Positions 4,504 through 37,903 of a DNA stretch of 40,302 bases are shown here, piece by piece. The position numbers were made by a program, and so were the translations under genes. Under the pieces are notes generated by a model. That model had not been told where the DNA came from. It did no database searches and saw nothing but the letters and a program-made list of their open reading frames with translations. Position 1 is the stretch's first letter. Every line of letters begins with the position of its first letter. The stretch is from a virus, in UHGV virus genome UHGV-1363354; one strand, written 5' to 3'.

Positions 4504-5183
4504 TGGTCAACCTCCCACTTGATGCCAGCGGCAGTCAGACGGTCAATGACCAGTTGCTTATCGAGCACCGCCACTTCGCGACAGAAATCGTCTCCCTCGA
4601 ACTCCGTATACATGGTCGTCGGCAACTTCACGGTGACGGTCCGGGACTTCTGTTCCGGGACTCCACGCGCCAGCGTTAGCGGCAGCCATTCTCCAGATTT
4701 TTTACGCACTTCTTCCAGTTGCGAATCGTGAACCGGCCCCTCATAGCCATCATCAGATTTAACTCTCACCCAGAACATAGGAGGGTTGCAGGATGCTACA
4801 GCCCCCAGTTTCGGCATAAGCCCGGACGTAATTGCATCAACGTAAGCATCAGAAATATCCTCATCAGTTCCGTCAAAGACGTAGCAACTGTCACGGACAA
4901 ATTTCAGGAGCACTGCTTTATGCGACTCCAGCTCGGCGATGCGCGCCTGCAACTCCTCGCAGTGGTCCGTTATCCCACGGCATTGAGTTTTCCAGTAGGC
5001 TTCCATCCCCTTCGCCTTCTCCAGCGCCTCTACCAGCGCGATGACATTGTTTGGGTTAGCCAGGGCGTAAAATTTATCTGCCGCCGCACGGCCTTTCGAA
5101 TACCGGGCGATAATGGCGAGCTCTTTGGCATCGATCGCTGCCGCTTTCAGGCTCTGCGCCAGTTCGGTGATATCGGTCATCAT
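4500..5183 (-). CDS. Hypothetical protein (227 aa)
   Basis: Long ORF with 4-nt overlap to the downstream gene. N-terminal coiled-coil. Confidence 0.5.
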   Translation of the reverse strand: MMTDITELAQSLKAAAIDAKELAIIARYSKGRAAADKFYALANPNNVIALVEALEKAKGMEAYWKTQCRGITDHCEELQARIAELESHKAVLLKFVRDSCYVFDGTDEDISDAYVDAITSGLMPKLGAVASCNPPMFWVRVKSDDGYEGPVHDSQLEEVRKKSGEWLPLTLARGVPEQKSRTVTVKLPTTMYTEFEGDDFCREVAVLDKQLVIDRLTAAGIKWEVDQ

Positions 5184-5377
5184 TTATCCTTACTAATTCG
5201 TTTCGGTGAACAGTACGCGCGGATCTGCGCGTCGGGGCGCTGGCCTTCAAACAGCACCAGCGAGTTTTCCGCTTTACGGGCGGCCGCCTGGCACGCCTCC
5301 AGCGTATAGAACGTCTCGGTAGTGGGCGGCGCAAGGACCCCCTGTGCCAGCACCCAGATAAACAGGACCGATGTCAT
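5180..5377 (-). CDS. Small secreted/membrane-anchored hypothetical protein
   Basis: Start MTSVLFIWVLAQGVLAPP (signal-peptide-like) then ETFYTLEACQAAARKAEN. ATGA overlap with the upstream gene. Confidence 0.4.
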   Translation of the reverse strand: MTSVLFIWVLAQGVLAPPTTETFYTLEACQAAARKAENSLVLFEGQRPDAQIRAYCSPKRISKDK

Positions 5378-5643
5378 TCGCAAACGTCCTCCACATGGCC
5401 GCACCGGATGCACTCCCGGAACTCCGGCTCGTCAAGGTGCTGTTTCCAGATGTGGTCGCACTCCGGGTGCGCGGCTGCCGCTGTGCGCTCCTCGACCGCC
5501 TGAATAACGGAGATGCGGACGCGGTCCGACGGCAGCGCCTGCACGTGGCCGTTAGCGTTGACCCGGATAAACGCCAGGCCGGTGATCTGCGCTTCGCGTA
5601 ACGCCTCGGCGAATGCGTTCAATACTTCATGCTCACGGTTCAT
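5374..5643 (-). CDS. Hypothetical protein with C-terminal zinc-ribbon (CxHxW...CxRCGH)
   Basis: Likely start MNREHEV at 5643, preceded by the GAGGATTGCTGATTATG initiation region. Confidence 0.45.
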   Translation of the reverse strand: MNREHEVLNAFAEALREAQITGLAFIRVNANGHVQALPSDRVRISVIQAVEERTAAAAHPECDHIWKQHLDEPEFRECIRCGHVEDVCE

Positions 5644-5645
5644 AA

Positions 5646-5834
5646 TCAGCAATCCTCGTCCTCTGGTAGTGCCATGTTTAGCGCGCGTTGAGCCTTTTCG
5701 ACTACCTGGCAAAGATTGAGGTATTTAACCTCTAATGCCTCGTAGTCCTTATACGTGACATACTGGCCTTTTCCGCGTTCTTCCATATCGAAATCACCAG
5801 CGCCATGCACAATCAAATCGTATCGAGTAACCAT
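5646..5834 (-). CDS. Hypothetical small protein (about 63 aa)
   Basis: Start MVTRYD preceded by an identical 17-nt GAGGATTGCTGATTATG initiation region. Confidence 0.4.
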   Translation of the reverse strand: MVTRYDLIVHGAGDFDMEERGKGQYVTYKDYEALEVKYLNLCQVVEKAQRALNMALPEDEDC

Positions 5835-5836
5835 AA

Positions 5837-6307
5837 TCAGCAATCCTCTTTGCGGCAGCCGCGTTGTTCTGGCAGGTCGCCGGTCATATCACTAAGCCAT
5901 CTTTTGAACGCTGTCCCGGGGAATTTACGGACGTCCGGCGCCATAACTTCTAACGCCCGCATATTCGCCAGATGCAACTTGGATGCCATATCGCCGATAT
6001 CGTCGCGCAGGTCTTTATTCTGGCGACGCAATTCTTTGTTGTCACGGCGCAGATTCTGTATCAGGTTATGCGTTTCGCGAGGCATAGGCACCGCTTCTTC
6101 GCCCTTCTGTGTCTTTGTTCTCGCTTGGTAATTGTTGCCGATTAACTTATAACTCGTCTCCGCTGCGGCGGCGCCTAAGTGGCCTCCGTAATAAAGAGAG
6201 CTTCCAGTAATACATAACACCTCGCAAAAATGCTTTTTAGGCACTCTTACTACGAGAAACAGGTTACCGCTGAAATTATTGCGCCACACCTGGCCTTTCT
6301 TAAACAT
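5837..6307 (-). CDS. Hypothetical protein (156 aa), C-terminal coiled-coil
   Basis: First gene downstream of promoter (b). RBS GAGGAGCAAA. Confidence 0.5.
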   Translation of the reverse strand: MFKKGQVWRNNFSGNLFLVVRVPKKHFCEVLCITGSSLYYGGHLGAAAAETSYKLIGNNYQARTKTQKGEEAVPMPRETHNLIQNLRRDNKELRRQNKDLRDDIGDMASKLHLANMRALEVMAPDVRKFPGTAFKRWLSDMTGDLPEQRGCRKEDC

Positions 6308-6337
6308 GATATTTGCTCCTCTCGTTTAGGTCCTCTG

Positions 6338-6367
6338 AGTATATGTCTAAATCAATGTTGGTTGCAA
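6338..6367 (-). promoter_or_regulatory. Sigma70-type promoter TTGCAA - 18 - TATACT (minus strand), overlapping an ATGTTGGTTGCAAT motif
   Basis: Minus-strand read TTGCAAccaacattgatttagacaTATACT, about 30 nt upstream of the 6307 start. Confidence 0.45.
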
Positions 6368-6639
6368 TACCGAATATCAAAAATAAGGGGCCGCGGTAAC
6401 TGGTATGGTAGTCTACTAGCCTACTTGCGTGCGTGGTGTGCGGAATTGGCTAGGACTAATCTTAATATGGAGAACCGCCCCCAACGCCCGCCAGCACTGC
6501 GATACGGGGATATATTAGTGGTATAGAGAACCACCCTCCCCGACGCTAAAACCTGCGTAACTCGCTGCCAGAATCACCGCAACCAACCAGAAAAATTATC
6601 CTGGCTCCTCGTAGCTGATACTTGCTGCCGTGATATTTA

Positions 6640-6919
6640 CATTCGAGCTATTGCAAACTCGCAATTAAAATGATATGCTCACTGCGTTCGCTTGGCAAAG
6701 CCCGCCAAGGCGACTTGCCTGCGACGCAAGAACGTGAGCATTTCAGGTTTTGCGAATAAAATCCCTCCATAAATCAATCACTTACCTACCGACTCGCAAT
6801 CCATTTTTGCGAAAACCAACAAAAACACCCTAAGTCATTGAAAACGTTACTCGCAATCTCATTCGCAAAATTTTGCGAGTCTTGCGAGTCGATTCGCATT
6901 ACTCGCAACACGTATTATT
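6640..6919. repeat. Iteron-like cluster of at least 8 CTCGCAA / TTGCGA(A/G) heptamers, including the perfect 16-bp palindrome TCGCAAAATTTTGCGA at about 6863-6878
   Basis: Heptamers in both orientations with AT-rich spacers in about 280 bp of non-coding DNA directly downstream of the primase-helicase gene. A 43-bp block (6849-6891) is copied at 36779-36821 with 1 mismatch. Confidence 0.55.
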
Positions 6920-9220
6920 TTACGAGTTTAAGTCCTCATCGCTTGCAACCAATTCCGGCGGGTCGAAGTCGTTTACGCCAGTCGGCAGCCTGTATTGTTG
7001 GTTGTAAACTTCGCCTGTATTCGGGTTGCGTCCGTGCACTAAAACCCGTCGTCGGACTAATTCCTCCAGCACTTTTTTATAGTTGCCGCTGGTGAACTTG
7101 TTTCCGCCGGCGGTGCCGATGGCGTATGGTGAATAGCCTTCCGGTTTATCCTCCAGTAGTTCGAGCTGGGCCACCATCACCTCTTCGGCCTTGTTCTTGG
7201 GCCCTGCGCCGCCGGAGGCTTTCACCGCCTCCCGGGCTACTTCGGCAGCTGGCGATTCGAACGGTGCCAGGGCGACCGGTACCAGGTACAGCGTTTCATC
7301 GCGCGGCGACATCTCCAGCGGTTTCGGCGTCCAGCCGGATAGCTGATCGGAAAAGTCCGGGCCCGCGGCGTTGGACAGATACGCGTCGACGCGGTCGGCG
7401 TGCGCCTGGGGGACGTCGATTTTACATTTCAGCAGGACGAAGCCGCGCGGCGACTGTTTGATGCCGTTACGCGCTTTTTCGTGATAGAGGTTGATCTGGT
7501 GAGGCTTGGCCTCGTCCGGCTGCTCGATGAAGAAGGCGTAATCCACGGCGCCATGAAGCGCGCCAGAGCCGCGGGCGGTACGCTGGCCCGAGGAGGACTT
7601 CGCCGGGTGGTGGATAACGCCGGCGCTGCCGCCGGTGGTCTCGGATATCTGTTTCAGCGCGCGGACGATTTCCCCCATATCGGTTGGGGAGTTTTCGTCG
7701 AACGGCTTTTTAGCTGTGCTGCGCATGGCGACAGTCTGGTTAAGCGAGTCGAAGGCTATCAGGCCGACTGGCGAATCGCCAGCTGCATCACGGATAATCT
7801 TGCATACCTCTTTCACGCCGCGCGCGTCGGTGATGTCGATCCCCTTATCCTGCAGGTCGATGATATGCAGCCAGTCCAGGTCGTCCTGATACATCTTCTG
7901 CAGCGCCTGCTTGCGGTGGAGGCTGGTTTCGCCGCCTTCCGCATCGAAATAAAAGTTGTGGGCGCGCACGACACGCCGTCCGCCGAACGGGATCCCGGCG
8001 GATATGGCCGCCATCTGGCCGAGGACGAAGAACGATTTACCGATGTTCGACTCGCCGGCGGCGTACCAGGTCGATTTGAAGTTAACCAGGCCCTCAATGA
8101 TGGGGTCACGCTTGGTGAACAGGGTAACCGGGTCGTCGTCCAGGTCCTCGTCGGTACACTGGCCGGCGGACGGGCCGTCCAGCGCCGCCATTACCTCGGC
8201 CTCGTAGATGTTGGTGATCTCCTCTTCCGGTAAATCCGGCAGCAGTTCGGCAATTTGCTTTTTGCTGATATTGTGGGCTTCGGGCAAATACTGGTCCGGT
8301 ACGCCGCAAAGGCGAAGCAGCATGTGCTGGTGGGTATTGTGCTTCCTGCAGTGGTCGTGCTGGCACGCGAAGCGCACCTCGGGGTGAAGGGCGTCGGGCA
8401 TCATGATCGCCGTGCTGCCGTCGGTCCCGTCGTTGTCGCTGTGCTGGAAGTGGTTAGGGCACTGTATGGCGAAGCCACGACCAGAGGATAGCGGTTCGAG
8501 GCCCATCTCCCAGCACCACGCGGCGATTGCCTGGCTGTTCTCGCTGGCGTTCTCCAGCGCTTCGTCGGTCCAGTTGGTTGAGCCCGATTCGTCCGGCACG
8601 TCGAACCGGTGGCGCAGGATGCGGCGGACGCTGGCGGGCGCGCCGCGGTGGTCGATGGTTTCCGCTTCGATGTGCGGGGCGAACATAAGACGGGCGCGCT
8701 GGAATGCGGTTTCGTCCATCCCTTTCGCGCCGGTGAGCCCGAGCATATCGATGAATTTGTGCTGGCACGGCCAGATCTCATCCGCCAGCATCGGCCGGTC
8801 TGTCGGGATGAGGAAACGCCAGGAGCGCGACTTAACGCCGCCTTTCAGGTCGTGCCGGTCGCCGCAGGTGGAGTAAGCAAAGAAAGTGTATCCGCCATCC
8901 TCCAGCGCGCGACGCACCCGGCGGATCTCTTTGCTGGAGACTTTGTCGATGTCGATAAACAGCAGGGATCGGGAAATGACGTTGTTGTTATTGCGCTTGT
9001 TGCGCTCAAACTCGGCGGCGACATACGGCAACCGGCCTTTCTTTTCTTCGTAGCGATCTTCGGTCTCGCTGCCGTCAATGGATACCCCCAGCACAGGGTC
9101 AGCGCCGATATCCAGCAGGTCGTCGATAAACTCATCCCAGGAGGATTCGAAAGCCTTCGGGCGATTGTCGGTTTTATGCCGGCCGAGAGAATAGGATATT
9201 TTTGATTTTAACCGTGGCAT
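6920..9220 (-). CDS. Bifunctional DNA primase-polymerase (AEP-type) / RecA-like (AAA_25-type) helicase, with a C-terminal winged-helix-like domain
   Basis: LLFIDIDKVSS (DxD of AEP primases), Zn-binding QCPNH...CQHDHC, Walker A AGESNIGKSF, basic C-terminal region KKVLEELVRRRVLV. 766 aa. Confidence 0.75.
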   Translation of the reverse strand: MPRLKSKISYSLGRHKTDNRPKAFESSWDEFIDDLLDIGADPVLGVSIDGSETEDRYEEKKGRLPYVAAEFERNKRNNNNVISRSLLFIDIDKVSSKEIRRVRRALEDGGYTFFAYSTCGDRHDLKGGVKSRSWRFLIPTDRPMLADEIWPCQHKFIDMLGLTGAKGMDETAFQRARLMFAPHIEAETIDHRGAPASVRRILRHRFDVPDESGSTNWTDEALENASENSQAIAAWCWEMGLEPLSSGRGFAIQCPNHFQHSDNDGTDGSTAIMMPDALHPEVRFACQHDHCRKHNTHQHMLLRLCGVPDQYLPEAHNISKKQIAELLPDLPEEEITNIYEAEVMAALDGPSAGQCTDEDLDDDPVTLFTKRDPIIEGLVNFKSTWYAAGESNIGKSFFVLGQMAAISAGIPFGGRRVVRAHNFYFDAEGGETSLHRKQALQKMYQDDLDWLHIIDLQDKGIDITDARGVKEVCKIIRDAAGDSPVGLIAFDSLNQTVAMRSTAKKPFDENSPTDMGEIVRALKQISETTGGSAGVIHHPAKSSSGQRTARGSGALHGAVDYAFFIEQPDEAKPHQINLYHEKARNGIKQSPRGFVLLKCKIDVPQAHADRVDAYLSNAAGPDFSDQLSGWTPKPLEMSPRDETLYLVPVALAPFESPAAEVAREAVKASGGAGPKNKAEEVMVAQLELLEDKPEGYSPYAIGTAGGNKFTSGNYKKVLEELVRRRVLVHGRNPNTGEVYNQQYRLPTGVNDFDPPELVASDEDLNS

Positions 9221-9285
9221 TGTTTATATTTACTCCTGGTATTTATGACGCGCTTCTGGTAAAGCCTCTCCGTTTTGGATGAGGC

Positions 9286-9522
9286 TTATTTTTTATCCGG
9301 GGTGCCTTCCCCAAGCGCCAGCCAGCGAGCATCGCATTCCAGCGCGTCCGCCAGGCGAAAGATACGCTCCATATTCAGGCTTTTAGTCCGCCCGTTCTGC
9401 ACAAATGATAAAGCCGACTGCGAGAGACCCCCGCGCATTACGACATCTTGCTGGCGCAGGCCAAGCTGTTTCATCCGCGCGTTAACGCGGAGCTGGAAAG
9501 GGTTACGGCGTGCTGTTGCCAT
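9286..9522 (-). CDS. XRE-family helix-turn-helix transcriptional regulator (Cro/CI-like)
   Basis: LGLRQQDVVMRGGLSQSALSFVQNGRTKSLNMERIFRLADALECDARWL is a classic HTH_XRE. Divergent from the rightward early operon. Confidence 0.7.
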   Translation of the reverse strand: MATARRNPFQLRVNARMKQLGLRQQDVVMRGGLSQSALSFVQNGRTKSLNMERIFRLADALECDARWLALGEGTPDKK

Positions 9523-9730: not shown

Positions 9731-10228
9731 ATGATTGAGAAATTTTACGCACTGCTGGAGCGCTTTGTTATTGCTCTTGAACTGATCGCCACTAACTTCA
9801 GCGCCGAGCGGACGGTAGGTCAGGTCGTCAAAGACGCCGTGAAAGATGCCACAGACACGCCGACCAAATCGGCCCGCACCCGTAAGGCGCCGGCCAAGAA
9901 AGAAGAACCGGAAGACGACGAGCCGGAAGACGACGAGCCGGAAGAGAAGCCTACCACCAAAAAACGTGGTGGCAAAACCGAAGCGCCGGCCAAAACCACC
10001 CGCGGTAAGAAAGGCACCGACAAGCGCGCTGCGATCGGCGAAATGGCAAAAGCTGCCGTAGAAGGCGACGGCCTGGACGATGACGACGCCGACGCGCTGG
10101 TGGATAAGTTCGACGACCTGCTGGAAGACTTCGAAGTTAAGAACGTCAAAGAGCTGGACGACGACCAGGTGGACGAATTCCACGATGCGCTTAAAGAGCT
10201 GATCGAAGAGTTCTACGACGCTGAATAA
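9731..10228 (+). CDS. Highly charged hypothetical early protein (165 aa)
   Basis: First rightward gene. Low-complexity basic middle (KKEEPEDDEPEDDEPEEKPTTKKRGGK) and acidic C-terminus. Confidence 0.5.
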   Translation: MIEKFYALLERFVIALELIATNFSAERTVGQVVKDAVKDATDTPTKSARTRKAPAKKEEPEDDEPEDDEPEEKPTTKKRGGKTEAPAKTTRGKKGTDKRAAIGEMAKAAVEGDGLDDDDADALVDKFDDLLEDFEVKNVKELDDDQVDEFHDALKELIEEFYDAE

Positions 10229-10235
10229 CCGATCT

Positions 10236-10258
10236 GCCCCGGCGCGCCGGGGCTTTTG
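10236..10258 (+). terminator. Intrinsic terminator GCCCCGGCG/CGCCGGGGC + TTTTG
   Basis: Perfect 9-bp GC stem followed by a T-run, immediately after the 10228 stop. Confidence 0.6.
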
Positions 10259-10272
10259 TCAGGAGCAATTCT

Positions 10273-10533
10273 ATGAAATATACCCTTATGAAAGGCCGCG
10301 ACTCCCGCGACAACGTGATCGCCTTCTGGCTTCTGCGCACCGACGGCGAGACGAAAGAATGCGCTTACCTCGGCAAATGCCCGCCGCCGGGTAACCGTGG
10401 CGCACAGGCCGCCCGCATTAAGCAGGTGACCATGGTTAAGCCTGATTTTTATGTCTTTGAGGATCAGTCGATGTTTGCGCTTCACTGCGACTATGCGTCG
10501 GCGTCACTGGTCGCAACCTGGGAGACCGTGTAA
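10273..10533 (+). CDS. Hypothetical protein (86 aa)
   Basis: RBS CAGGAGCAA upstream. Stop overlaps the start of the next gene. Confidence 0.45.
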   Translation: MKYTLMKGRDSRDNVIAFWLLRTDGETKECAYLGKCPPPGNRGAQAARIKQVTMVKPDFYVFEDQSMFALHCDYASASLVATWETV

Positions 10534-11861
10534 TGACCAATGCAAGCGGCAGCAATCACGAACACGCCTTGCTGTCTCCGTCCGGGTCGAAAAAATGGCT
10601 GGGGTGCTCTGCATCCCTGCTGTGCGAGAAGGACATCCCGAACGAAAGCGGCCAGGCGGCCATTAACGGGACCGCGATGCACGCGGTATCCGAGGACCTT
10701 TTAAACCGGCACATTAAAGGCGAGACAACCGTAACAGCAGCGCATTACAAGGGCGTATACGTCCTGAATGAAGGCAAAGGCCCTATTAAGGCGGTGGCCG
10801 GCAAGCCGCCCGCCGGCGCGGTACTCATCAACGATGAATTCGTAACCATGGTCGAGCGCTACACCGATTATGCGCTCGGGGTCATCTCATCCGCTGAGTA
10901 CGTCAAAATCGAAATGCGGGCCGAGCTGACTAAGTTACTGCACCCAGGCTATACGGCGGATTTTATCGACGAGCGTACAGGAGAAACCGGAGAAGCAGCA
11001 GTAAAAACCTTCGGCACGGCTGACCTGGTTGCCGTAATCCCGCGCACAGACGGGTCGTTTATGTTGCTGGTCGGCGACCTGAAAACTGGCCGGCACGCGG
11101 TCGACGCTAAAGAGAACAAACAGCTGATGCTGTACGCGCTGGCTATCCTGGCGAAGCTGCGCAGGCTGTATGACATTACGCTGGTGCGCCTGGCGATATT
11201 CCAGCCTTATTGCGGCGGGCCGTCAGAATGGGACATCACGCCAGAGGGGCTTGACATCTTCCGTAAGTTCGCCAGCAAGCGCGCGATCGAAGCGCTTGAC
11301 GTCTACTACGGCGGTAAGAAAAATCTTAAGGCCAGCCATTTCAAGCCGTCGGCCGACGCATGCCAGTGGTGCCGGTTCAACGAGAAATGCAACGCCCGGG
11401 CGAAGGCTGCTATCAAAACGGGCGGCACTACGGCAACCGATGCCGACCTGGGCGACGACAATCACGAAATGACGCCGGAAGAGCTGAAAGCAGCCTATGA
11501 AAAGCTGCCGGAGTTACGCCAGCACATCGCCACGATCGAAAAGGCTATGCATGCGGCGCTGCTGTCCGGCGTTGCGGTGCCCGGCTATAAGCTGGTTACC
11601 GGTAACGAGGGCAATCGTAAATGGTCCGACGCCGCGAAGGTTACCGAAATGCTGGAAGGCGCGCGTATCAAGCGCGATATGATGTTTAAAGAGTCGCTGA
11701 TCTCGCCTACCGACGCGGAAAAAGTCTTTAAGACCGAGAAGCCGCGGATCTGGCGACGCCTTGAAAAGCTGATCGAACGCGCCCCCGGAAAGCCAACAAT
11801 AGCGGCAGCTGACGACCCGCGCGCCGAGTGGAAACAAGCAACCGACGAGGACCTGGAATGA
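10533..11861 (+). CDS. DUF2800-family PD-(D/E)XK nuclease (Cas4/RecB-like phage exonuclease)
   Basis: N-terminal HALLSPSGSKKWLGC and internal LVGDLKTG...ENKQLMLYA motifs. 442 aa. Sits next to DUF2815 and polA, as is typical for this replication module. Confidence 0.6.
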   Translation: MTNASGSNHEHALLSPSGSKKWLGCSASLLCEKDIPNESGQAAINGTAMHAVSEDLLNRHIKGETTVTAAHYKGVYVLNEGKGPIKAVAGKPPAGAVLINDEFVTMVERYTDYALGVISSAEYVKIEMRAELTKLLHPGYTADFIDERTGETGEAAVKTFGTADLVAVIPRTDGSFMLLVGDLKTGRHAVDAKENKQLMLYALAILAKLRRLYDITLVRLAIFQPYCGGPSEWDITPEGLDIFRKFASKRAIEALDVYYGGKKNLKASHFKPSADACQWCRFNEKCNARAKAAIKTGGTTATDADLGDDNHEMTPEELKAAYEKLPELRQHIATIEKAMHAALLSGVAVPGYKLVTGNEGNRKWSDAAKVTEMLEGARIKRDMMFKESLISPTDAEKVFKTEKPRIWRRLEKLIERAPGKPTIAAADDPRAEWKQATDEDLE

Positions 11862-12064
11862 TTATTAAATGGTTCGAAATAATTGGCATTATAGTGGCGT
11901 GGACTATCCATAGCCTGGCTATATCGCCTATCGTTTCGTTGGCTCTGTTAATCATGCTAATTCAGCCTTTGATTAGCGAGGAACGCCTTGACGCTATCGG
12001 CGAATGGGGCTGGCCGGATAGATACGAGGCCTTTATTACGAAAATAACCGGCGTAAAAGTTTGA
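11858..12064 (+). CDS. Small membrane protein (about 68 aa)
   Basis: MIIKWFEIIGIIVAWTIHSLAISPIVSLALLIMLIQPL gives two transmembrane helices. ATGA-coupled to the nuclease gene. Confidence 0.4.
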   Translation: MIIKWFEIIGIIVAWTIHSLAISPIVSLALLIMLIQPLISEERLDAIGEWGWPDRYEAFITKITGVKV

Positions 12065-12142
12065 CATCTGCAACCAACTAAATTAACGTATTCATACCGG
12101 CCCGGCGGTTTCCGGGAGAATCGCAAAAAGTGAGAAACGAAA

Positions 12143-12898
12143 ATGGGAATCAAGGTAAATCTGAAAAAAGTTCGCATCGCATGGTTCTACGGCACCGAGA
12201 AAGCGAAAGCGCAGAATGACGGCGAAAAGGACGCATATCGCGTCGAAATTCTGGTTGACAAGGACGACCACAAAAGTATTGCCAAGCTGGACGAAGCGGC
12301 ATTGGCGGTAATGACCGAAGCGCTTAAATCAGAAAAGGCTGCCGAGAAGTGGCTTAAGCGCGAAAGCGGTCTCGAAGGCAATATCTCCAAAGATTGCGCC
12401 ATCAAAGACGGTGACGAGCGCGACACGGAAGATGAAAATTACGAGCACAAAATCTGGATCCGTGCCAAGTCGTATAAGCAGCCCCGCATCTTAACTGACC
12501 TGGGCGAAGAAACACGCGATGGTGAAGAAGACCTCGAAGGGAACGACCTCGAGGGTAAAGTGCCTTACGGCGGCTGCTTCGCCAACGTGTCGATCGAATT
12601 GTGGGGCCAGAATAACGACAAAGGCAAAGGCCTGCGCTGTAACTGGCTCGGCGTGAAATTCGTCGAAGATGGCGAAGCGTTCGGCGGCGGTGGGTCCAGC
12701 GAGCGCGCCAACGACGACGACCTGGATGACGATGATGAAGACGACGCACCGCGTCGCGGCAAGTCCAAGCCGAAACCGTCCCGCCGCTCCCGTGACGAGG
12801 ATGAAGACGAAGAGGATGAAAAACCCCGCCGTCGCCGTTCTCGCGATGAGGACGACGAAGACGAGGAAGAAGAGCGACCGCGCCGCCGTCGCCGCTAA
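12143..12898 (+). CDS. DUF2815-family (SSB-like OB-fold) protein with a long alternating acidic/Arg-rich C-terminal tail
   Basis: ...GGCFANVSIELWGQNNDKGKGLRCNWLGVKF core resembles DUF2815. The C-terminal 70 aa are DDDLDDDDEDD...RRSRDEDEDEEDEKPRRRRSRDEDDEDEEEERPRRRRR. Confidence 0.55.
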   Translation: MGIKVNLKKVRIAWFYGTEKAKAQNDGEKDAYRVEILVDKDDHKSIAKLDEAALAVMTEALKSEKAAEKWLKRESGLEGNISKDCAIKDGDERDTEDENYEHKIWIRAKSYKQPRILTDLGEETRDGEEDLEGNDLEGKVPYGGCFANVSIELWGQNNDKGKGLRCNWLGVKFVEDGEAFGGGGSSERANDDDLDDDDEDDAPRRGKSKPKPSRRSRDEDEDEEDEKPRRRRSRDEDDEDEEEERPRRRRR

Positions 12899-12904
12899 AA
12901 TCAA

Positions 12905-12927
12905 GGCCCGCGAAAGCGGGCTTTTTC
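12905..12927 (+). terminator. Intrinsic terminator GCCCGC-gaaa-GCGGGC + TTTTT
   Basis: Perfect stem and T-run just after the 12898 stop. Confidence 0.6.
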
Positions 12928-12945
12928 ATATCCGGAGCGTGAACC

Positions 12946-13134
12946 ATGTATAAACACAACCGAAACCGCCCCCATGAAACACGGATCCCCGTCGGTCTGC
13001 CGCTGGATGTCGACGGAGCCAGCGAATACTTAACTCTCCGTCTCGGCCGCAAAATGTACCTGCGAATCGTGGATACCGAGGAACAAGCCCGCCGGCGCAA
13101 AGCAATGACGGCAACCGACGAGGACCTGGAATGA
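12946..13134 (+). CDS. Hypothetical small basic protein (62 aa) ending ATDEDLE
   Basis: ORF-track ORF. Its last 24 nt are identical to the last 24 nt of the DUF2800 gene and overlap the polA start. Confidence 0.4.
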   Translation: MYKHNRNRPHETRIPVGLPLDVDGASEYLTLRLGRKMYLRIVDTEEQARRRKAMTATDEDLE

Positions 13135-15317
13135 AGTTCGATAACCTTTTTCTCGACACTGAAACATTCAGCGCCTGCGACCTGAAAAAATGTGGGTCAT
13201 ATGCTTATGCCGAGCATCCGTCCACCGAAATTATGATAACCACCTTCGCTATTGACGACGGCCCGGTTATGGAGTGGGATGCAACGGCAGACCCCCGGAT
13301 GCCGCGGGTATTGCGCCGGGCGCTGCGCGAGGTATGCAAGCAGAATACGAAGAGCCGGATTGTTATGCAAAACGGCCTTTTGTTCGATCGCCTTCTCATG
13401 CGCCATTGTTGGGGCATAGAGATCCCGGTAAAAAACAGCATCGATACGATGATCTGCGCCTACAGGCTGTCGCTTCCCGGCTCCCTGGACGCGCTATGCC
13501 GCGTTCTGGAGATATCCGAGGACTTAGCCAAGGATAAAGCCGGTAAAGCGCTGATACAGCGATTCTGTAAGCCTACGCCGAAAAATTACAAGATCCGCCG
13601 CTACACCCGCGAAACGCATCCGGAAGAGTGGCGCCGTTTTCTGAAATATGCCCGCAGCGATATATCGTCAATGCGTGAGGTGTTTTATGCGCTGCCGACG
13701 TGGGGCGATACTGAGAAGGAAAACGAGATACTCGCCATCGACCAGGCGATCAACGACCGCGGCTTTTACGTCGACATAGCGCTGGCCGAATCCGCCGTCG
13801 CCGCGGTTAAGCAGCACAAGCTGGACCTGCAGCGCGAGGCGATGGCTAAATACGGCGGCAGCCTGACCGGTAAGGACTTCCTCCCGATCCTGCGAGACCT
13901 GGCGCCCGCATTCGATATCCCTAACGCGCAGAAAGCAACCCTGGGCGATCTGCTGGACGACGAGGACCTGCCAGACGCCGCCCGGGCACTTATCGAAATG
14001 CGCCTCGGCGCTGCGTCCACCGCCTCCACCAAGTACGACCCGCTGCTGCGCGGCTTATCCAGCGACGGCCGGCGCCGCGGCTGTTTGCAGTATGGCGGCG
14101 CGAAAAGGACGCTGCGATGGGCGGGTAAAGGCTTCCAGCCGCAGAACCTGGCGCGCGGACATTACGAAGGCGAAGACCTTGATTACGGGATCCGTTGTCT
14201 TAAGCGCAACCGCATCACGAAGGCTTTCGACATCGCCAAGTTAACGGCAACCACGGTTCGCGGGTGCATTATCGCGGCGCCCGGATGCAAGCTGGTTGTT
14301 GCCGACTACTCGAACGTCGAAGGGCGCGGCCTGGCGTGGATATCCGGCGAAGAGGCGACGCTTAATGTTTTCCGGGCTGGTACGGACCTGTATAAGACGC
14401 TCGCGGCCACCGTGTTCTGCGTGTCGTATGACGACGTGTCGAAGGACCAGCGCCAGATCGCCAAGGCGATGATTCTCGGCCTGGGTTACGGTGGCGGCGT
14501 GGCGGCATTCCTGACGTTTGCCAAAAACCTCGGCCTAGACCTTGACCGGCTGGCGCACGACCTGGCGGGCACATTCCCGGACCATATCTGGAAGGCTGCG
14601 CGCCGGGGGTGGGAGTTTGCCCGCATCCAGGAGAAGAACAAGCGCGCTCCGAAGGGCAAGAAGGCCGAGCGCCCGTCGTATGACCTGCCGAAAAAGGTGT
14701 GGCTGACCTGTGACGCATTGAAACGCATGTACCGCGAGGCTAACCCGAATATCGTTAATTTCTGGGCCGAGCTGGAAGCGGCGGCATTGAGCGCGATCCG
14801 CAATCCTGGCCGGTCATTTTGGGCGGGCGCCCGAGTCCGTGAGAATGGCGACAAGGCCGTTAAGTTCACTCGCACAGTGAAAAACGGTAACCCGGGTTGG
14901 TGGCTTAAGGTTGAGCTGCCGTCTGGTCGCATCCTGTCGTATCCGGGGATCGGCCTGTCGGTCGAGAAAGAGGAAGACGAGGACACCGGCGAGATCCGCA
15001 CGCGTACCCGCATCAAATACCAGGGGGAGAACCAGACGACGCGCCAGTGGGGTTGGCAATATACCTATGGCGGCAAGCTGGCTGAAAACATCGTACAGGC
15101 CCTTTGCCGTGACCTGCTGGCCTGGTCAATGCCTGGCGTCGAGGCCGCCGGGTATAAGATTATTCTGTCCGTGCATGATGAACTTTTAACCGAAGTTCCC
15201 GACACGCCGGAGTACACCGTCAAAGAGCTGGAGCGCCTCATGTGCGTGCTGCCGGCATGGGCTAAAGACTTCCCATTGAGCGCTGAGGGTTGGGAGGGTC
15301 GGCGGTACAAGAAGTAG
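13131..15317 (+). CDS. polA: Family A DNA polymerase with N-terminal 3'-5' exonuclease
   Basis: Exo I LFLDTETFS. Pol motif A VVADYSNVEGRGLAW, motif B RQIAKAMILGLGYGGG, motif C LSVHDELLTEV. Confidence 0.9.
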   Translation: MKFDNLFLDTETFSACDLKKCGSYAYAEHPSTEIMITTFAIDDGPVMEWDATADPRMPRVLRRALREVCKQNTKSRIVMQNGLLFDRLLMRHCWGIEIPVKNSIDTMICAYRLSLPGSLDALCRVLEISEDLAKDKAGKALIQRFCKPTPKNYKIRRYTRETHPEEWRRFLKYARSDISSMREVFYALPTWGDTEKENEILAIDQAINDRGFYVDIALAESAVAAVKQHKLDLQREAMAKYGGSLTGKDFLPILRDLAPAFDIPNAQKATLGDLLDDEDLPDAARALIEMRLGAASTASTKYDPLLRGLSSDGRRRGCLQYGGAKRTLRWAGKGFQPQNLARGHYEGEDLDYGIRCLKRNRITKAFDIAKLTATTVRGCIIAAPGCKLVVADYSNVEGRGLAWISGEEATLNVFRAGTDLYKTLAATVFCVSYDDVSKDQRQIAKAMILGLGYGGGVAAFLTFAKNLGLDLDRLAHDLAGTFPDHIWKAARRGWEFARIQEKNKRAPKGKKAERPSYDLPKKVWLTCDALKRMYREANPNIVNFWAELEAAALSAIRNPGRSFWAGARVRENGDKAVKFTRTVKNGNPGWWLKVELPSGRILSYPGIGLSVEKEEDEDTGEIRTRTRIKYQGENQTTRQWGWQYTYGGKLAENIVQALCRDLLAWSMPGVEAAGYKIILSVHDELLTEVPDTPEYTVKELERLMCVLPAWAKDFPLSAEGWEGRRYKK

Positions 15318-15351
15318 AGAATACACCACAAACAAAAGAGGCCTACAAATT

Positions 15352-15747
15352 ATGAATGACATTATGCATTTCGTGAAACGGCAGAAGCTGAAATGGTTCA
15401 ACGCCACGCCATACCCGGCGCAAATAATCGTCTATATCCTTGGGGAAGATGAAAAGTTATTGAAGGCCATCCCCGATCACCCACCACTTGGCGAGGGCAC
15501 TAACGGCCGTTGTTGCTGGATGCAAAAGGATGGGTACAACATTATCACAATCGGCGTTAAGCGCGACCTGGGCGACTTTATGGCCGTTGCCGCGCATGAG
15601 TGTTATCACGCGATGAACGCGTGTTATGGCTGGTTCGGTGCGCAGCATGATACGGAGAACGACGAGCCAGGAGCCTACTTTCTGGGGCACATCATGCGTG
15701 AGTTTACGATCCGTTTCGCCGAATTGCTGGAGGAAACAAAGCCGTGA
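15352..15747 (+). CDS. Putative HExxH zinc metallopeptidase (SprT/Wss1-like)
   Basis: VAAHECYHAMNA motif in a 131-aa protein. Confidence 0.45.
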   Translation: MNDIMHFVKRQKLKWFNATPYPAQIIVYILGEDEKLLKAIPDHPPLGEGTNGRCCWMQKDGYNIITIGVKRDLGDFMAVAAHECYHAMNACYGWFGAQHDTENDEPGAYFLGHIMREFTIRFAELLEETKP

Positions 15748-16034
15748 CGCCGGAAGGACGCATACAGGCATACGCGATGGCCGAGTTTAAAAAGTTAGGG
15801 GCATTGGTGCGAAAGTTGAGGTATGAGGGGCGCAACGGGTGCCCCGATCTGCTGATCATTCTGCCCGGCGGCCTGGTGGTGTTCGTGGAGGTGAAGAAAG
15901 ACGAGCGCACCGGTCCTGACCCGCACCAGGCGCGCGAGCACGAACGAATGCGCAGTCGTGGCGCTCTGGTCTACACAGTCGGCAGCGAGGAACAGGTAAA
16001 CGAATTGGTTGCAGAATTGCGCTATAGTGTTTAG
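15744..16034 (+). CDS. VRR-NUC domain nuclease (PD-(D/E)XK)
   Basis: GCPDLLIILPGGLVVFVEVK core. Confidence 0.7.
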   Translation: MTPEGRIQAYAMAEFKKLGALVRKLRYEGRNGCPDLLIILPGGLVVFVEVKKDERTGPDPHQAREHERMRSRGALVYTVGSEEQVNELVAELRYSV

Positions 16035-16061
16035 TATGTTGGTTGCTAAGGAGGATACACC

Positions 16062-16325
16062 ATGCCTAAACCTAAACTGAGAAAGGCCGGCCGGGAGCTG
16101 GTAGAAAAATACGGGTCACTCTCCGCGGCCCCGGATGAGGCGCTCGCTGCCGTTACTAAGCGTTGCAACGGCCCGTGTCGTAAGCGCAAGCCATTAAGCG
16201 AGTTCCACCGTTACAGCGGGCGCAGCGTGGACGGTTTCCGCGCGGTCTGCAAACAATGCCGCCGGGAAGCCGAGCGCGAGCGCCAGCGGATCAAGAGAAA
16301 CCCGGTACAGGAAGAAACAGAATGA
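16062..16325 (+). CDS. Small zinc-finger protein (CNGPC...CKQC)
   Basis: RBS TAAGGAGG. The motif TTTAGTATGTTGGTTGC lies just upstream. Confidence 0.45.
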   Translation: MPKPKLRKAGRELVEKYGSLSAAPDEALAAVTKRCNGPCRKRKPLSEFHRYSGRSVDGFRAVCKQCRREAERERQRIKRNPVQEETE

Positions 16326-16501
16326 GAGTTTTAGCGGGAGCAATCAAACGTGGCGACGTGCTACAGGTTGGTGATGTTCTGGAAACTGTTTTCGATGCAT
16401 TCCGGTCACTCGACGCGCAGAAACAGGAGATCCGCGTTATCCAATTCGAGAGCGGGACCGTCATGATCCTGGAATATTCCGACATCGTGGAGCGCGTATG
16501 A
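16322..16501 (+). CDS. Hypothetical small protein (about 59 aa)
   Basis: ATGA-coupled to the upstream gene. Start MRVLAGAIKRGD. Confidence 0.35.
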   Translation: MRVLAGAIKRGDVLQVGDVLETVFDAFRSLDAQKQEIRVIQFESGTVMILEYSDIVERV

Positions 16502-16995
16502 AAAAACGGATAAATCTGGACCGCATAAAGAGCCTACTTAAGTATGACCCGAAGACTGGTATTTTTACTCGGCTTGTCTCTGTTAAAGGTCGAAACGCGG
16601 GTGATATTGCTGGATGTCTGTCGGACAGCGGATATGTAAATATCGTTGTTGATGGCGTGCGATTGAAAGGCCATCGTCTCGCGTGGGCTTTTGTCCACGG
16701 ATTCTATCCTGAATTCGAGATCGACCACAAAGATCGCAATCGGTCTAATAACGCTATTGACAATTTAAGACCTGCGACGCGAAGTCAGCAGATAGTAAAC
16801 CGCGATACTTCCGCCAGGAATACAAGTGGGGCGAAAGGGGTGTACATGCTGCCTTCCGGACGCTGGCGGGCTCGAATTTGTAAGGGCCGGAATTATATTC
16901 ATCTCGGTTATTTCGACTCCATGGCGGAGGCTGAATCAGTTTACAAAAAAGCCGCTTCTGAATTGTTCGGGGAGTTCGCCGATGTCACGATTTAA
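16498..16995 (+). CDS. HNH homing endonuclease with C-terminal AP2 DNA-binding domain (free-standing mobile endonuclease)
   Basis: HRLAWAFVHGFYPEFEIDHKDRNRSNNAIDNLR (HNH motif) plus SGAKGVYMLPSGRWRARICKGRNYIHLGYFDSMAEAESVYKKA (AP2 domain). Inserted immediately upstream of the helicase gene, overlapping its start. Confidence 0.8.
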   Translation: MKKRINLDRIKSLLKYDPKTGIFTRLVSVKGRNAGDIAGCLSDSGYVNIVVDGVRLKGHRLAWAFVHGFYPEFEIDHKDRNRSNNAIDNLRPATRSQQIVNRDTSARNTSGAKGVYMLPSGRWRARICKGRNYIHLGYFDSMAEAESVYKKAASELFGEFADVTI

Positions 16996-18403: not shown

Positions 18404-18897
18404 GAGATCATTTGCTGTTGCGCGGGCTTGACCCGTCTTTATACCGCGTCTGGTTGTCGGATACGTGCGCCACCTTTCCTTTGTGGGGCTTCGATGGTCG
18501 TTTAAGAGGTTTCCAGCAGTACCGGCCTTCTGCACCAAAGAAAAGCGAAAGGCCGTCAGAAGGGAGGTACTTCACATGGTCGAGTGCTCCCTCTGTGTGG
18601 GGGCTGGATACGCTACCCAGCCACGGCGTTGTGTTTGTTTGTGAAAGTATCTTCAAGGCCGTGGCGGCACATCGCGCGGGGTTCAACGCGATATCCGCCA
18701 ATGGGTCGTCGCTGGCTCCATCTTTGCAGGGTCAAATGATGCTTATGACGCAATACCGGTTTATCTGTGTCGGGGACGATGACGCGGCCGGGCTAAAATT
18801 CAGCAAAACATTCGGCAAGGGTGCTACCGCTCCAGACCTCGACGAATTACCTTTGTGTTTAGTACAAAAGTTACTAACGGAAGCGTGCTATGGCTGA
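18400..18897 (+). CDS. TOPRIM-like domain protein (putative primase/nuclease-related)
   Basis: Conserved Glu (VFVCESIFKA) followed by DxD (ICVGDDDAAG) with TOPRIM-like spacing. Confidence 0.35.
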   Translation: MRDHLLLRGLDPSLYRVWLSDTCATFPLWGFDGRLRGFQQYRPSAPKKSERPSEGRYFTWSSAPSVWGLDTLPSHGVVFVCESIFKAVAAHRAGFNAISANGSSLAPSLQGQMMLMTQYRFICVGDDDAAGLKFSKTFGKGATAPDLDELPLCLVQKLLTEACYG

Positions 18898-19381
18898 CAA
18901 ATCAAACACGGCTCCGGAGGATAAGGACTGCTGGCGCTCACCACCGGAGATATTCGAGCCGCTGAATGAGCGGTTTAATTTCCGCTATGACATGGCGGCA
19001 GCAGATCACAATGCACTTTGCGCACGGTACTACACGGAACAGAATAGCGCCCTGGGTATCGAGTGGCCCGCAGCATGGAAATGGTGTAACCCGCCATACT
19101 CGAAGCCGCTGCCTTGGTTCCAGCACGCCGCGCAGTACCGGAAAACGGTGTTGCTCCTGCACCTGGCCGTCGCTACGCAGTGGATGGATATTGCGCGCCG
19201 GGAGGCGAATACCATCATTCAGCTGACAGAGCGCATTCAGTTTATCCACGCCAGGACCGGCGAGCGCGCGGCGACGAAGAACAACCGCGACTCGGAGATC
19301 ATCATCTTTGGCCGTCGGCCTAACCCTGACGGCGCGCGCATCGTCCAGTGCTCGATCGCGGATATCGCAAAATATCTATAA
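18890..19381 (+). CDS. dam: Phage-type DNA N6-adenine methyltransferase (Dam)
   Basis: DMAAADHNALCARYYT and catalytic NPPY (WCNPPYSK) motifs. Confidence 0.8.
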   Translation: MADKSNTAPEDKDCWRSPPEIFEPLNERFNFRYDMAAADHNALCARYYTEQNSALGIEWPAAWKWCNPPYSKPLPWFQHAAQYRKTVLLLHLAVATQWMDIARREANTIIQLTERIQFIHARTGERAATKNNRDSEIIIFGRRPNPDGARIVQCSIADIAKYL

Positions 19382-36555: not shown

Positions 36556-36721
36556 ATCGCCACCTTTACAATTGCTGCCGTTGATTTCTCGCAAAATAAA
36601 TGATACGATCAGCTTCGCTTTTGAGCGACGCCCCGCGAGGGCGGGCGCGCAACAAGCAATTGAAGTGATCGATTCAGCCTTCCACGTTGTAACTCCTTGA
36701 TTTTACTCACCTAATTTAGCC

Positions 36722-36838
36722 ACTCGCAAACTAAAACGGCAGCAACCAACTAAATTAACCTAAGTCCTTGATATCTATACTCGCAATTTCATTCGCAAAA
36801 TTTTGCGAGTCTTGCGAGTCGTCGCTACTCGTAATAAA
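36722..36838. repeat. Second copy of the CTCGCAA/TTGCGAG block with the TCGCAAAATTTTGCGA palindrome (36779-36821), plus GCAACCAACTAAATTAAC (36742-36759) and the CTCGTAAtttaTTACGAG dyad overlapping the upstream gene's stop
   Basis: 43-bp block with 1 mismatch to 6849-6891. Lies in the 244-bp non-coding gap between the head-morphogenesis and Rz genes. Confidence 0.55.
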
Positions 36839-37903
36839 TTACGAGTTCCCGGCCAGATATTTGGCGACCCGGGAATCTACTTCCGCCATCTCTTTCAGGG
36901 TCAGAGGACGGCCGAAACCATCAATTGACGCAGCGCGGAACTCTTCCGGGGTCATGCCGCTGTTACGTAAAATTGCCCCTCTCGTTGGCCCAATCGCCTG
37001 ATCCTGGAACCACGCCGGCTGGCTTTTAAGAAACTCATAATACGACGTGTTAGCATCGACCTGCATACCCCCATCGGCGCCACGCGCCGCACGCATCGCC
37101 CCTTCATCGAGGAAGGATAAGAAATCGTCGTCAATAACGGGGGCTGTGGTAGTTCGGCAGCGCGGGTGGAATGGCGGCAGCGGACCCTTACCTACTGGGA
37201 ACACCTGGGAGTCGAGCCCGCGACACGTTGCCGACGTTCTGCCGTCCAGCGTGGCAACTATTCGATATTTAGAAACGATATCATCGTTGGCCTTGTACAG
37301 CTCGTCGCGGGCCACATTCGAAACGTGGGCTACCCCGGTATGCGCGATAGTGAAAGCATCGCGTAGCGAAATATCCGCCAGGCCTCCCGCGCCGACAGTT
37401 TGCTGCACGATCTGCCTGGTTGTCATGCCCTGCACAAAGCCGCTCTGTACACCTCGCGCCAGGCGGTTCTTCTCTGACGTTGTCCAGCCGTCCAGCAAGT
37501 CAATCAGGCCCACAGGCTTATCGTTAAGCGACAAAGGCACGAATTTAACCGCGGACCATAACTCATCTGCGGTAGGCCCGGACACGAACGATCGTTTTTC
37601 TTCCCGCAGATTATCCGTCAGCGTATGACGAAACCACTTATTTTCATAATCGGCGATCTCTTTTAGGCTTTTCTCGATAGTAGACTTCCAGTCCCCGGTA
37701 ACATCATCGAGTACGCTCTCAAGAGAGGCGAGCATTTTATTCAACTTCTTTACCGTCCTGGCGTCGTCACCAAAGGCCTGCACAGCCTCTTTAACTTCCG
37801 CTTTCATACGGATAACGAACGGGATAGACAGGGACGCTGTCTGCGTCCCAAGTCTTTGAAGCCATATTTGATGGCTAATGATGTTTTGCTCCAGCTTACT
37901 CAT
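36839..37903 (-). CDS. Head morphogenesis protein (Mu F / SPP1 gp7 family)
   Basis: ATLDGRTSATCRGLDSQVFPVGKGPLPPFHPRCRTT motif. Immediately downstream of the portal gene. Confidence 0.75.
   Translation of the reverse strand: MSKLEQNIISHQIWLQRLGTQTASLSIPFVIRMKAEVKEAVQAFGDDARTVKKLNKMLASLESVLDDVTGDWKSTIEKSLKEIADYENKWFRHTLTDNLREEKRSFVSGPTADELWSAVKFVPLSLNDKPVGLIDLLDGWTTSEKNRLARGVQSGFVQGMTTRQIVQQTVGAGGLADISLRDAFTIAHTGVAHVSNVARDELYKANDDIVSKYRIVATLDGRTSATCRGLDSQVFPVGKGPLPPFHPRCRTTTAPVIDDDFLSFLDEGAMRAARGADGGMQVDANTSYYEFLKSQPAWFQDQAIGPTRGAILRNSGMTPEEFRAASIDGFGRPLTLKEMAEVDSRVAKYLAGNS

Follow-up and report, generated by a model that had tools for sequence, protein, structure and literature searches.

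A candidate replication origin downstream of the primase-helicase gene of a Klebsiella siphophage, with a paralogous module in the late region

It is probable that the repeat-rich stretch directly past the primase-helicase gene of the phage genome UHGV-1363354 (locus 1, positions 6624-6927) is its replication origin and that a similar stretch in the late region (locus 2, 36574-36846) is a paralogous module that binds the same initiator. The genome, analysed here over its full 40,302 bases and referred to as the window, is that of a complete, circularly closed Klebsiella siphophage of the subfamily Guernseyvirinae. The initial annotation, made from the sequence alone, had read an array of heptamers at locus 1, partly repeated at locus 2, as a candidate iteron origin with a second cis-acting site. 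This proposal is supported by the position of the repeat cluster in relatives, by covariation of the repeats with a predicted winged helix at the end of the primase-helicase, and by second loci in three clades. Iteron origins of self-loading initiator-helicases are already known; for this phage group they have most likely not been pointed out before, and our literature searches on Guernseyvirinae and Dhillonvirus found no described origin and no binding, replication or marker-frequency data.

Genomic setting of the two loci

Circularity is indicated by the end and start of the window, which join colinearly within the large terminase gene of Klebsiella phage 37P2. The 3.3 kb around the primase-helicase gene (6000-9300) matches the Klebsiella phages 37P2 and VLCpiS11a at 94-95% identity. 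Minus-strand genes run from 9522 down to 1 and continue from 40302 to ~19400, and the replication genes on the plus strand form a block at 9731-19381. Locus 2 sits between the head-morphogenesis and spanin genes, close to plus-strand open reading frames, and is 10.1 kb from locus 1 on the circular map. One of the two gene junctions leads to small genes and then to holins and endolysin, the other to the spanin and then to head and tail genes. The genes concerned are:

6920..9220, minus strand: primase-helicase gene, the proposed initiator (open reading frame; PHROG 3228 'replicative helicase-primase', 3.5e-265)
9286..9522, minus strand: XRE-family HTH gene of 78 aa, upstream of the primase-helicase gene (Pfam HTH_3)
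36839-37903: head-morphogenesis gene, flanking locus 2
36166-36555: Rz-like spanin gene, flanking locus 2
6989..7192, minus strand: winged-helix codons (predicted fold, about residues 677-744), the proposed iteron reader

The primase-helicase is 98% identical to the 37P2 helicase and has a C-terminal acidic tail. Its Pfam domains at E<=0.01 are AAA_25 (residues 365-543, 1.7e-19) and BT4734-like_N (residues 61-122), with no further one detected; the BT4734-like N-terminal family is one that we take to be an archaeo-eukaryotic-type primase clade. A PDB sequence search with the protein returned no relative at E<=1, and the C-terminal 167 aa, used on their own as a protein query, matched one fragment. 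The winged-helix-like C terminus that had been suspected from the sequence is borne out by the predicted fold, in which the last ~80-100 codons encode a winged helix.

Heptamer arrays and the core palindrome

The heptamer TTGCGAG (CTCGCAA on the other strand) occurs 16 times in the window compared with 7.6 +/- 2.6 times in shuffled sequences, none of 100 of which reached 16. Eleven of the 16 exact copies lie in two non-coding stretches of ~250 bp, six at 6658-6908 and five at 36588-36818. The clustering noted earlier is thus real: the densest 300 bp, at locus 1, holds 6 exact heptamers, and 300 first-order Markov simulations never gave more than 3. With the variants TTGCGAA and TTACGAG included, the totals are 10 sites at locus 1 and 8 at locus 2, and both orientations are represented. 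All ten sites of locus 1 lie within 270 nt of the primase-helicase stop, which the first of them overlaps, and the array is kept in 37P2, VLCpiS11a and five IMG/VR contigs. The parts of the two loci are:

6658..6927, minus strand: locus 1 iteron array, clustered beyond chance
6658, 6793, 6850 and 6902, minus strand: TTGCGAG, locus 1
6873 and 6882, plus strand: TTGCGAG, locus 1
6750 and 6807, plus strand, and 6862, minus strand: TTGCGAA, locus 1
6920: TTACGAG, locus 1, overlapping the primase-helicase stop codon
6848..6891: core 44-nt block of locus 1, two plus two heptamers facing each other around AAAATTTT (single-strand fold z = -3.6)
6675..6741, minus strand: long GC-rich stem-loop of locus 1 (ATGCTCAC...GTGAGCAT; MFE -39.8 kcal/mol, z -3.3)
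6624..6676, minus strand: A/T-rich ATATCATTTTAA stretch right after that stem-loop, including CGGCAGC at 6624-6630
36574..36846, minus strand: locus 2, a second complete module, kept in 37P2 and VLCpiS11a
36812 and 36803, plus strand, and 36792 (TTGCGAA), 36780, 36723 and 36588, minus strand: heptamers, locus 2
36778..36821: core 44-nt block of locus 2, with the palindrome at 36793-36808
36827-36846: dyad ACTCGTAA/TTACGAGT, overlapping the head-morphogenesis stop
36606..36671, minus strand: long stem-loop of locus 2 (CGATCA...TGATCG; MFE -38 kcal/mol, z -2.8)
36574-36580: CGGCAGC, which follows TATCATTT in the tail of locus 2

The perfect 16-bp palindrome of the initial annotation, TCGCAAAATTTTGCGA, is found at both loci (6863-6878 and 36793-36808). 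A 43-bp block had been described as duplicated; it does recur, as 44 nt with a single mismatch (C at 6858, T at 36788), but it is part of a larger unit. A repeat search extends the similarity between the loci to 105 nt at 79% identity (6787-6891 and 36717-36821), and the duplicated unit is the whole module of ~270 nt. The additional features that had been listed for locus 2 are also present, namely heptamer copies at 36588 and 36723 and a CTCGTAA-N4-TTACGAG dyad (36828-36845). The claim that the block itself overlaps the ends of the upstream genes did not hold, as the final two codons and the stop of each gene come from a separate, iteron-like octamer, ACTCGTAA.

The A/T centre between the facing heptamers of locus 1 is only 8 bp long, and the locus has no long A/T-rich unwinding element (the highest A+T content in a 30-nt window is ~0.70). 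DnaA boxes were considered and set aside, with one 1-mismatch site near each locus compared with 42 in the window. The GTGAATAGTTATGCA boxes of the Salmonella and Dhillon lineages are absent from the window.

A composite module with a selected stem-loop

On the minus strand, both loci have the same order of parts: the heptamer array, a GC-rich stem-loop of 66-67 nt, the sequence (A/G)TATCATT with A/T-rich sequence, and CGGCAGC. The stem-loop of locus 1 (67 nt) lies 180 nt past the primase-helicase stop and is flanked by TTCGCAA (6750-6756) and TTGCGAG (6658-6664). A scan for TAYCATT placed after a strong fold and before CGGCARC returned exactly these two places in the window, and the identical scan of Serratia phage Tsm2 also returned exactly two. 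The distance from TAYCATT to CGGCAGC in the window and in Tsm2 is 45 and 46 nt, respectively, at locus 1, and 25 nt in both at locus 2. The sequence CGGCARC, which comes at a set distance past each module, is the commonest 7-mer in four diverged phage genomes (92-104 copies each) and might, more speculatively, be a genome-wide replisome signal, for example a priming site. An ops/RfaH-like reading of ACGGCAGCA was dropped, CGGCAGC being this genome-wide 7-mer.

Within the 95%-identical Klebsiella clade, the stem-loop of locus 1 has two alleles that differ by 4 compensatory pairs, with 0 pairs broken in the core. The stem-loop of locus 2 shows a compensatory C-G to T-A change in the alignment with 37P2 and VLCpiS11a, and compensatory changes are also visible between Tsm2 and Smarc3, another Serratia phage. 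These changes keep the pairing, and the stem-loop structure is under selection; it may form in RNA, in single-stranded DNA or as a cruciform. Analogous hairpins are present in other lineages.

These folds raise the question of whether the heptamer hairpin, with its tiers, and the long stem-loop act as RNA, as terminators, attenuators or RNase processing sites. The folds exceed shuffled sequences in stability (z -2.8 to -6.2), U-rich runs follow the stem-loop in the Klebsiella clade (AUCAUUUUAAUU, AUCAUAUUUUUU, AUCAUUUAUUUU), and Salmonella phage FSL SP-031 has a stem-loop and CGGCAGC ahead of its spanin gene without iterons, so the stem-loop may have a separate, possibly RNA-level, role. However, the compensatory changes that favour an RNA suit a DNA hairpin or cruciform equally well, the Serratia phages have no U-run, a terminator scan was negative at the hairpins of both loci, and the short repeats of Salmonella phages and Dhillonviruses are mostly direct and thus unable to pair with one another. 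Rfam gave no match at gathering thresholds in the whole window and only chance-level matches at E<=10 in 6100-7000. We therefore regard an RNA function as very unlikely as an explanation of the loci. The RNA hairpin that had been offered as an alternative falls for the heptamers, and for the long GC-rich stem-loop alone such a role is possible. Two other readings of the stem-loop region were discarded. A sigma-70 promoter inside the long hairpin (TTGCCA-17-TATCAT) is, as judged by eye, not conserved at locus 2, in Tsm2 or in HK578, an Escherichia coli Dhillonvirus. A leader peptide starting at ATGCTCAC would have open reading frames of varying length and none at locus 2, and its ATG is the base of the stem.

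Repeat clusters in related phages

We compared ~15 lineages of Guernseyvirinae and Dhillonvirus, drawn from an annotated phage collection, IMG/VR and assemblies. Nearly all have a cluster of short repeats, with direct and inverted copies, 10-260 nt past the primase-helicase stop. The conservation that the initial annotation had named as a check therefore extends to the position of the cluster, and the repeat sequence is specific to each lineage:

Window clade: ACTCGCAA
Serratia phages Tsm2 and Smarc3: TTCCGCACA
Salmonella phage FSL SP-031: GGGGAGA
L014 and L016, environmental Salmonella-type contigs: CGGAC(A/G)
L017, L022 and L043, environmental Salmonella-type contigs: TGTCGGAA
L021, environmental Salmonella-type contig: AGGGATA
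L024-26, environmental Salmonella-type contigs: GCGGACA
L045, environmental Salmonella-type contig: GGGATGA
E. coli Dhillonviruses such as HK578: GCGGGACA
L050 and L051: GGGATC dyads
L049: TCGCAA x3 facing TTGCGA x3, with the hexamer core found in the window

The last of these, L049, is the closest other lineage (61% primase-helicase identity). A k-mer scan 3' of the primase-helicase gene revealed no obvious cluster in two environmental groups (L015, L018-L020; L023, L027) or in Edwardsiella phage eiAU-183 (L042). Many lineages have mostly direct repeats; the conserved property would therefore be recognition by a sequence-specific protein rather than pairing between copies. Two viral contigs with a 19-nt palindrome core (L053 and L055) were attributed to chance, having isolated palindromes without a heptamer array, as was a second CGGACG cluster in L016, which lies inside the terL coding sequence.

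Repeat type and the primase-helicase C terminus

Comparisons between close relatives with different repeats narrow down the protein segment that changes with them. L016 and L046 share 98% identity over primase-helicase residues 1-640 and 99% identity in the XRE protein, but only 44% identity in the last 95 aa, and their repeats differ. The same holds for L026 and L022, with 99% identity in the primase-helicase core and 50% in the last 95 aa, again with different repeats. Conversely, L017, L043 and L022, all of which have TGTCGGAA, have the most similar C termini (66-81%) despite three XRE types. At the DNA level, the identity between L016 and L046 ends 312 nt before the stop codon; past the stop it is weak (71% at +16..+352), and it is high again from +558. 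Because DNA identity breaks there, the exchanged unit would comprise the C-terminal codons and the repeats. Judged from these alignments, the repeat type tracks the last ~95 aa of the primase-helicase and not its remainder, the XRE protein or the small terminase (TerS). Recombination alone could keep the winged-helix codons and the repeats together, since they are physically adjacent; distant second loci that have the repeat of their own lineage answer this caveat in part.

Such natural recombinants stand in for swap experiments, and they contradict a role for the XRE regulator, whose operators had been put forward as another reading of the heptamers. L016, L043 and L046 share XRE proteins at 97-100% identity but have three repeat types (CGGAC, TGTCGGAA and GGGGAGA, respectively), and the XRE proteins of L022 and L045 are 100% identical although the repeats differ; we rejected this reading.

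They also bear on the notion that the array is a pac recognition site for the small terminase, as the pac site of phage P1 has hexamer arrays. In its GenBank record, Smarc3 has a 'pac site' annotated at position 1, which falls in the intergenic region of locus 1, ~115 nt past the CGGCAGC. The annotated position is nevertheless not within the repeats, and the array goes with the primase-helicase C terminus. Moreover, the repeats differ within two pairs of relatives whose TerS proteins are alike, L016 and L043 (96% identity) and L026 and L022 (89%). A pac site is thus an extremely improbable account of the array.

The second locus

A second locus with the lineage-specific repeat occurs in three clades: the window clade, the Serratia clade and HK578. 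In Tsm2 and Smarc3, the orthologous locus lies ahead of the spanin gene and has the Serratia-type repeat; in HK578, the second copy is flanked by the tail chaperone and tape-measure genes. We did not see a second locus in most Salmonella-phage lineages or in L050 and L051, and locus 2 is therefore not essential to the family. The locus-specific spacings between TAYCATT and CGGCAGC are common to the window and Tsm2, which implies that the duplication is older than the split between them and that both loci changed repeat type in step. Gene conversion may keep the modules alike, the 44-nt blocks having 1 mismatch here compared with ~5 in 37P2.

The placement of the two loci also allows the heptamer dyads to be read as transcriptional operators at two operon junctions, bound by a phage protein, possibly the winged helix itself, that would switch or block transcription. 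Both loci lie at junctions of a long minus-strand transcription unit, the dyad symmetry fits dimeric regulators, and in many replicons the initiator is also a repressor that acts on inverted repeats. One heptamer of locus 2 doubles as a -35-like hexamer (TTGCGA-18-TAAAAT), the -10-like hexamer of which is kept in 37P2 (TAAAAT) and is one base off in VLCpiS11a (ATAAAT). No consistent promoter is formed at locus 1, however, and what is conserved is the position past the primase-helicase gene, not a position ahead of a particular promoter. Most lineages have direct repeats, with a strong sigma-70-type promoter placed separately after the module, and the position of the second copy of HK578 speaks against operators as well. 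XRE, the one dedicated regulator in the neighbourhood, is ruled out by the natural swaps. Operators are, on balance, an unlikely explanation of the two loci, although the -35-like heptamer at locus 2 makes an additional regulatory role possible.

Support for an origin from GC skew

For the preferred reading, an origin at locus 1, nucleotide composition offers a further line of evidence. The minimum of the cumulative GC skew lies ~300 bp from the primase-helicase stop in five of five Klebsiella and Serratia genomes, and not at the divergent promoter, where the direction of transcription changes. In HK578 the minimum is at the divergent promoter and not at locus 1, and in SP-031 the skew agrees with locus 1 only in the detrended curve. 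The agreement is weak independent support for the origin.

Proposed mechanism

We infer the following sequence of events, from DNA binding by the winged helix to origin firing at locus 1. The C-terminal winged helix of the primase-helicase would read the TTGCGAG(T) heptamers (cognate repeat TTGCGAGT). The 44-nt core, with two plus two heptamers around AAAATTTT, could seat two oppositely oriented helicase rings. The primase-helicase would then load itself, unwind the DNA and prime synthesis. The 66-67-nt stem-loop and the A/T-rich TAYCATT stretch may serve as an auxiliary melting or priming element. In the late region, locus 2, ahead of the spanin gene, would be bound by the primase-helicase too, and it may be either a second origin or a bound site that is met by replication forks, as has been proposed for oriR of phage SPP1.

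Comparison with known replication systems

The closest analogue of the protein and its repeats is the Rep/ori pair of the Staphylococcus aureus pathogenicity islands (SaPIs). SaPI Rep is a self-loading initiator-helicase whose C-terminal winged-helix domain reads short iterons, 6-12 of which follow rep directly. Rep and iterons are matched island by island, the iterons that flank a central A/T stretch point in opposite directions, and PriRep5 is a primase fused to Rep (PMC9371898). The phage shares with this system a predicted C-terminal winged helix, iterons right after the open reading frame and cognate pairs, and its facing heptamers may correspond to the opposed iterons. The helicase cores differ, being SF3 or MCM-type AAA+ in SaPI Reps and RecA-type AAA_25 in the phage, and we therefore consider SaPI Rep an analogue, not a homologue. 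The phage repeats are also longer (7-9 nt compared with 5-6 nt), and their central A/T stretch is just 8 bp. Unlike SaPIs, the phage adds a long stem-loop and a second genomic copy, and it is a virulent siphophage rather than a satellite.

In organization, the two loci resemble oriL and oriR of SPP1, with the same ordered parts at two places. In SPP1, gp38 binds two origins that are separated by about 13 kb on the circular map, the first located at the initiator gene and the second within the late morphogenesis region beside moron genes; the second has been proposed to stall forks and so to trigger the switch from theta to sigma replication (PMC6316719). The first origin of SPP1 is inside gene 38, whereas locus 1 follows the initiator gene. 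Moreover, gp38 only binds the origin, acting together with a loader and a DnaB-type helicase and recruiting the host primase, whereas in the phage one fused polypeptide would combine these activities. As the whole module is present again at locus 2, the SPP1 pair is a closer parallel than the ori and crr of phage P4.

The likeness to P4 that had been suggested earlier stands at the level of function, with the same iteron at two loci, but not at that of the protein, which is of the AAA_25 and BT4734-like_N type and not alpha-like; PHROG 3228 is a distinct family. P4 alpha has its own primase type, an SF3 helicase and a C-terminal DNA-binding domain, and a short repeat is found in both orientations at two places in P4, one of them close behind the alpha gene. 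The crr element consists of two 120-bp direct repeats and is not itself a start site of replication, whereas locus 2 is a full copy of the module.

For SV40 and phage lambda, the likeness is in layout only, as T antigen and lambda O are proteins unrelated to the phage primase-helicase. Site II of SV40 has four short repeats, two plus two head to head, in a palindrome that is flanked by a melting palindrome and an A/T tract. The lambda origin has iterons, an A/T-rich stretch and an inverted repeat, and the specificity domain of O and the iterons have been swapped together among lambdoid phages.

A stem-loop past the stop codon, and an operon comprising a small repressor gene and a primase/helicase/winged-helix gene, recall the Sulfolobus plasmid pRN1. 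The pRN1 origin is a stem-loop of ~100 nt a short way past the primase/helicase/winged-helix gene, and its structure is conserved but its sequence is not; an ORF904-type origin has also been proposed for Bordetella phages BIP-1/BPP-1 (PMC4234260). No iterons are described at the pRN1 stem-loop origin (PMC4234260), and its helicase is of the SF3 class; in the phage, the 66-67-nt stem-loop comes after an iteron array.

Implications

For Guernseyvirinae and Dhillonvirus, large groups of virulent enterobacterial siphophages that feature in phage therapy collections, these findings provide a candidate origin. To what is known of iteron origins, they add for this phage group a winged-helix/iteron cassette, a stem-loop under selection, and a paralogous second module. 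An exchangeable specificity cassette, made up of the winged-helix segment and the iterons, would explain the mosaic breakpoints inside the primase-helicase gene, and it could predict replication compatibility among co-infecting relatives or satellites.

A more speculative idea, and one that we hold to be rather doubtful, is that the second module is not a spare origin but a place in the late region at which the replicative primase-helicase is programmed to land or stall. If this is true, the second module would couple replication to the theta-to-sigma switch or to expression of the lysis and late genes that come after the two modules. The paired modules offer a Gram-negative counterpart to oriL and oriR of SPP1, in which to ask why some phages keep two initiator-binding regions.

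An abundant 7-mer that also follows the origin-like modules

The most frequent 7-mer of the window is CGGCAGC, with 70 copies across the whole sequence compared with 41 for the runner-up, and it ranks first or second in the genomes of Serratia phage Tsm2 (L003), Salmonella phage FSL SP-031 (L005) and Dhillonvirus HK578 (L006). Counted as CGGCARC, it occurs 92–104 times per genome in these four diverged genomes, the window included; for comparison, CGGCAGC has 13 copies and ranks 615 in a 50-kb segment of Escherichia coli K-12. Both strands carry the 7-mer, and it falls in several different reading frames, so the signal is one at the level of DNA. Each of the two origin-like modules is followed, at a fixed distance, by one copy:

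6624-6630, CGGCAGC at locus 1
36574-36580, CGGCAGC at locus 2

Elements of related origin-like regions and isolated repeats

In the origin-like regions of Salmonella phages and dhillonviruses, GTGAATAGTTATGCA(G) occurs once or twice between the iterons; where a T precedes it (TGTGAATAG), the sequence differs by one mismatch from a DnaA box in reverse orientation. This box is absent from the clade of the window and from the Serratia clade.

HK578, 38340-38370 and 11240-11270, regions with GTGAATAGTTATGCA(G)
FSL SP-031, 13781-13815, region with GTGAATAGTTATGCA(G)

Among the repeat copies of the window that lie outside the two modules are two isolated ones:

2606-2612, single TTGCGAG, in the minus-strand region 2600-2660
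6437-6445, minus strand, one copy of the Serratia-clade iteron TTCCGCACA

The first lies 4 nt upstream of the -35 element of a good promoter (TTGCAA-17-TATACT), with a terminator-like hairpin directly preceding both; it may be a coincidence or a single regulatory site. The second sits in the non-coding DNA that separates locus 1 from the next promoter and is probably due to chance, although it could be a relic.

A recurrent 9-mer, GTTGGTTGC (often GTTGGTTGCAA), was observed next to sigma-70-like promoters in the window:

2586, 6357, 6579, 9701, 12070, 16038, 19384, 35464 and 36742, 9-mer GTTGGTTGC

Its register relative to the promoter is not fixed; in some cases it overlaps the -35 element, in others it falls within the spacer or comes after the -10 element. 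Counterparts were identified in related lineages, namely GTTGGCCGC in L049, GTTGGCAGC in L050/L051, ATTGGTTGC in HK578 and ATGTTGGCTG in Salmonella phages. The 9-mer may represent a second protein-binding motif rather than merely a promoter component.

Primase-helicase tail, early-gene repeats and genome ends

All members of the primase-helicase family have a short acidic C-terminal tail after the winged helix, in which D-L is invariant (alignment A2); the protein encoded in the window ends in …DEDLNS.

6923-6990, minus strand, codons of the acidic tail (alignment A2)

In T7 gp4, such a tail contacts the polymerase, and by analogy the acidic tail could serve as a polymerase-contact tail.

Two plus-strand early genes contain internal tandem repeats that encode acidic residues; in Klebsiella phage VLCpiS11a, the counterpart of one of these genes encodes a Gp2.5-like single-strand DNA-binding protein:

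9894-9955 and 12708-12891, 15-nt tandem repeats (GACGACGAGCCGGAA and similar)

The last 400 nt followed by the first 400 nt of the window are colinear with positions 4920-5719 of Klebsiella phage 37P2 (94.9% identity); positions 1-40302 are a complete circular genome, opened within the large terminase gene.

The GenBank record of Serratia phage Smarc3 (L004) annotates a ‘pac site’ at position 1, which falls within the intergenic DNA downstream of the primase-helicase gene, approximately 115 nt past the first CGGCAGC:

Smarc3, position 1 (annotated ‘pac site’) and 39605-40056

Given this location, the start of packaging in Smarc3 may adjoin the origin-like module.
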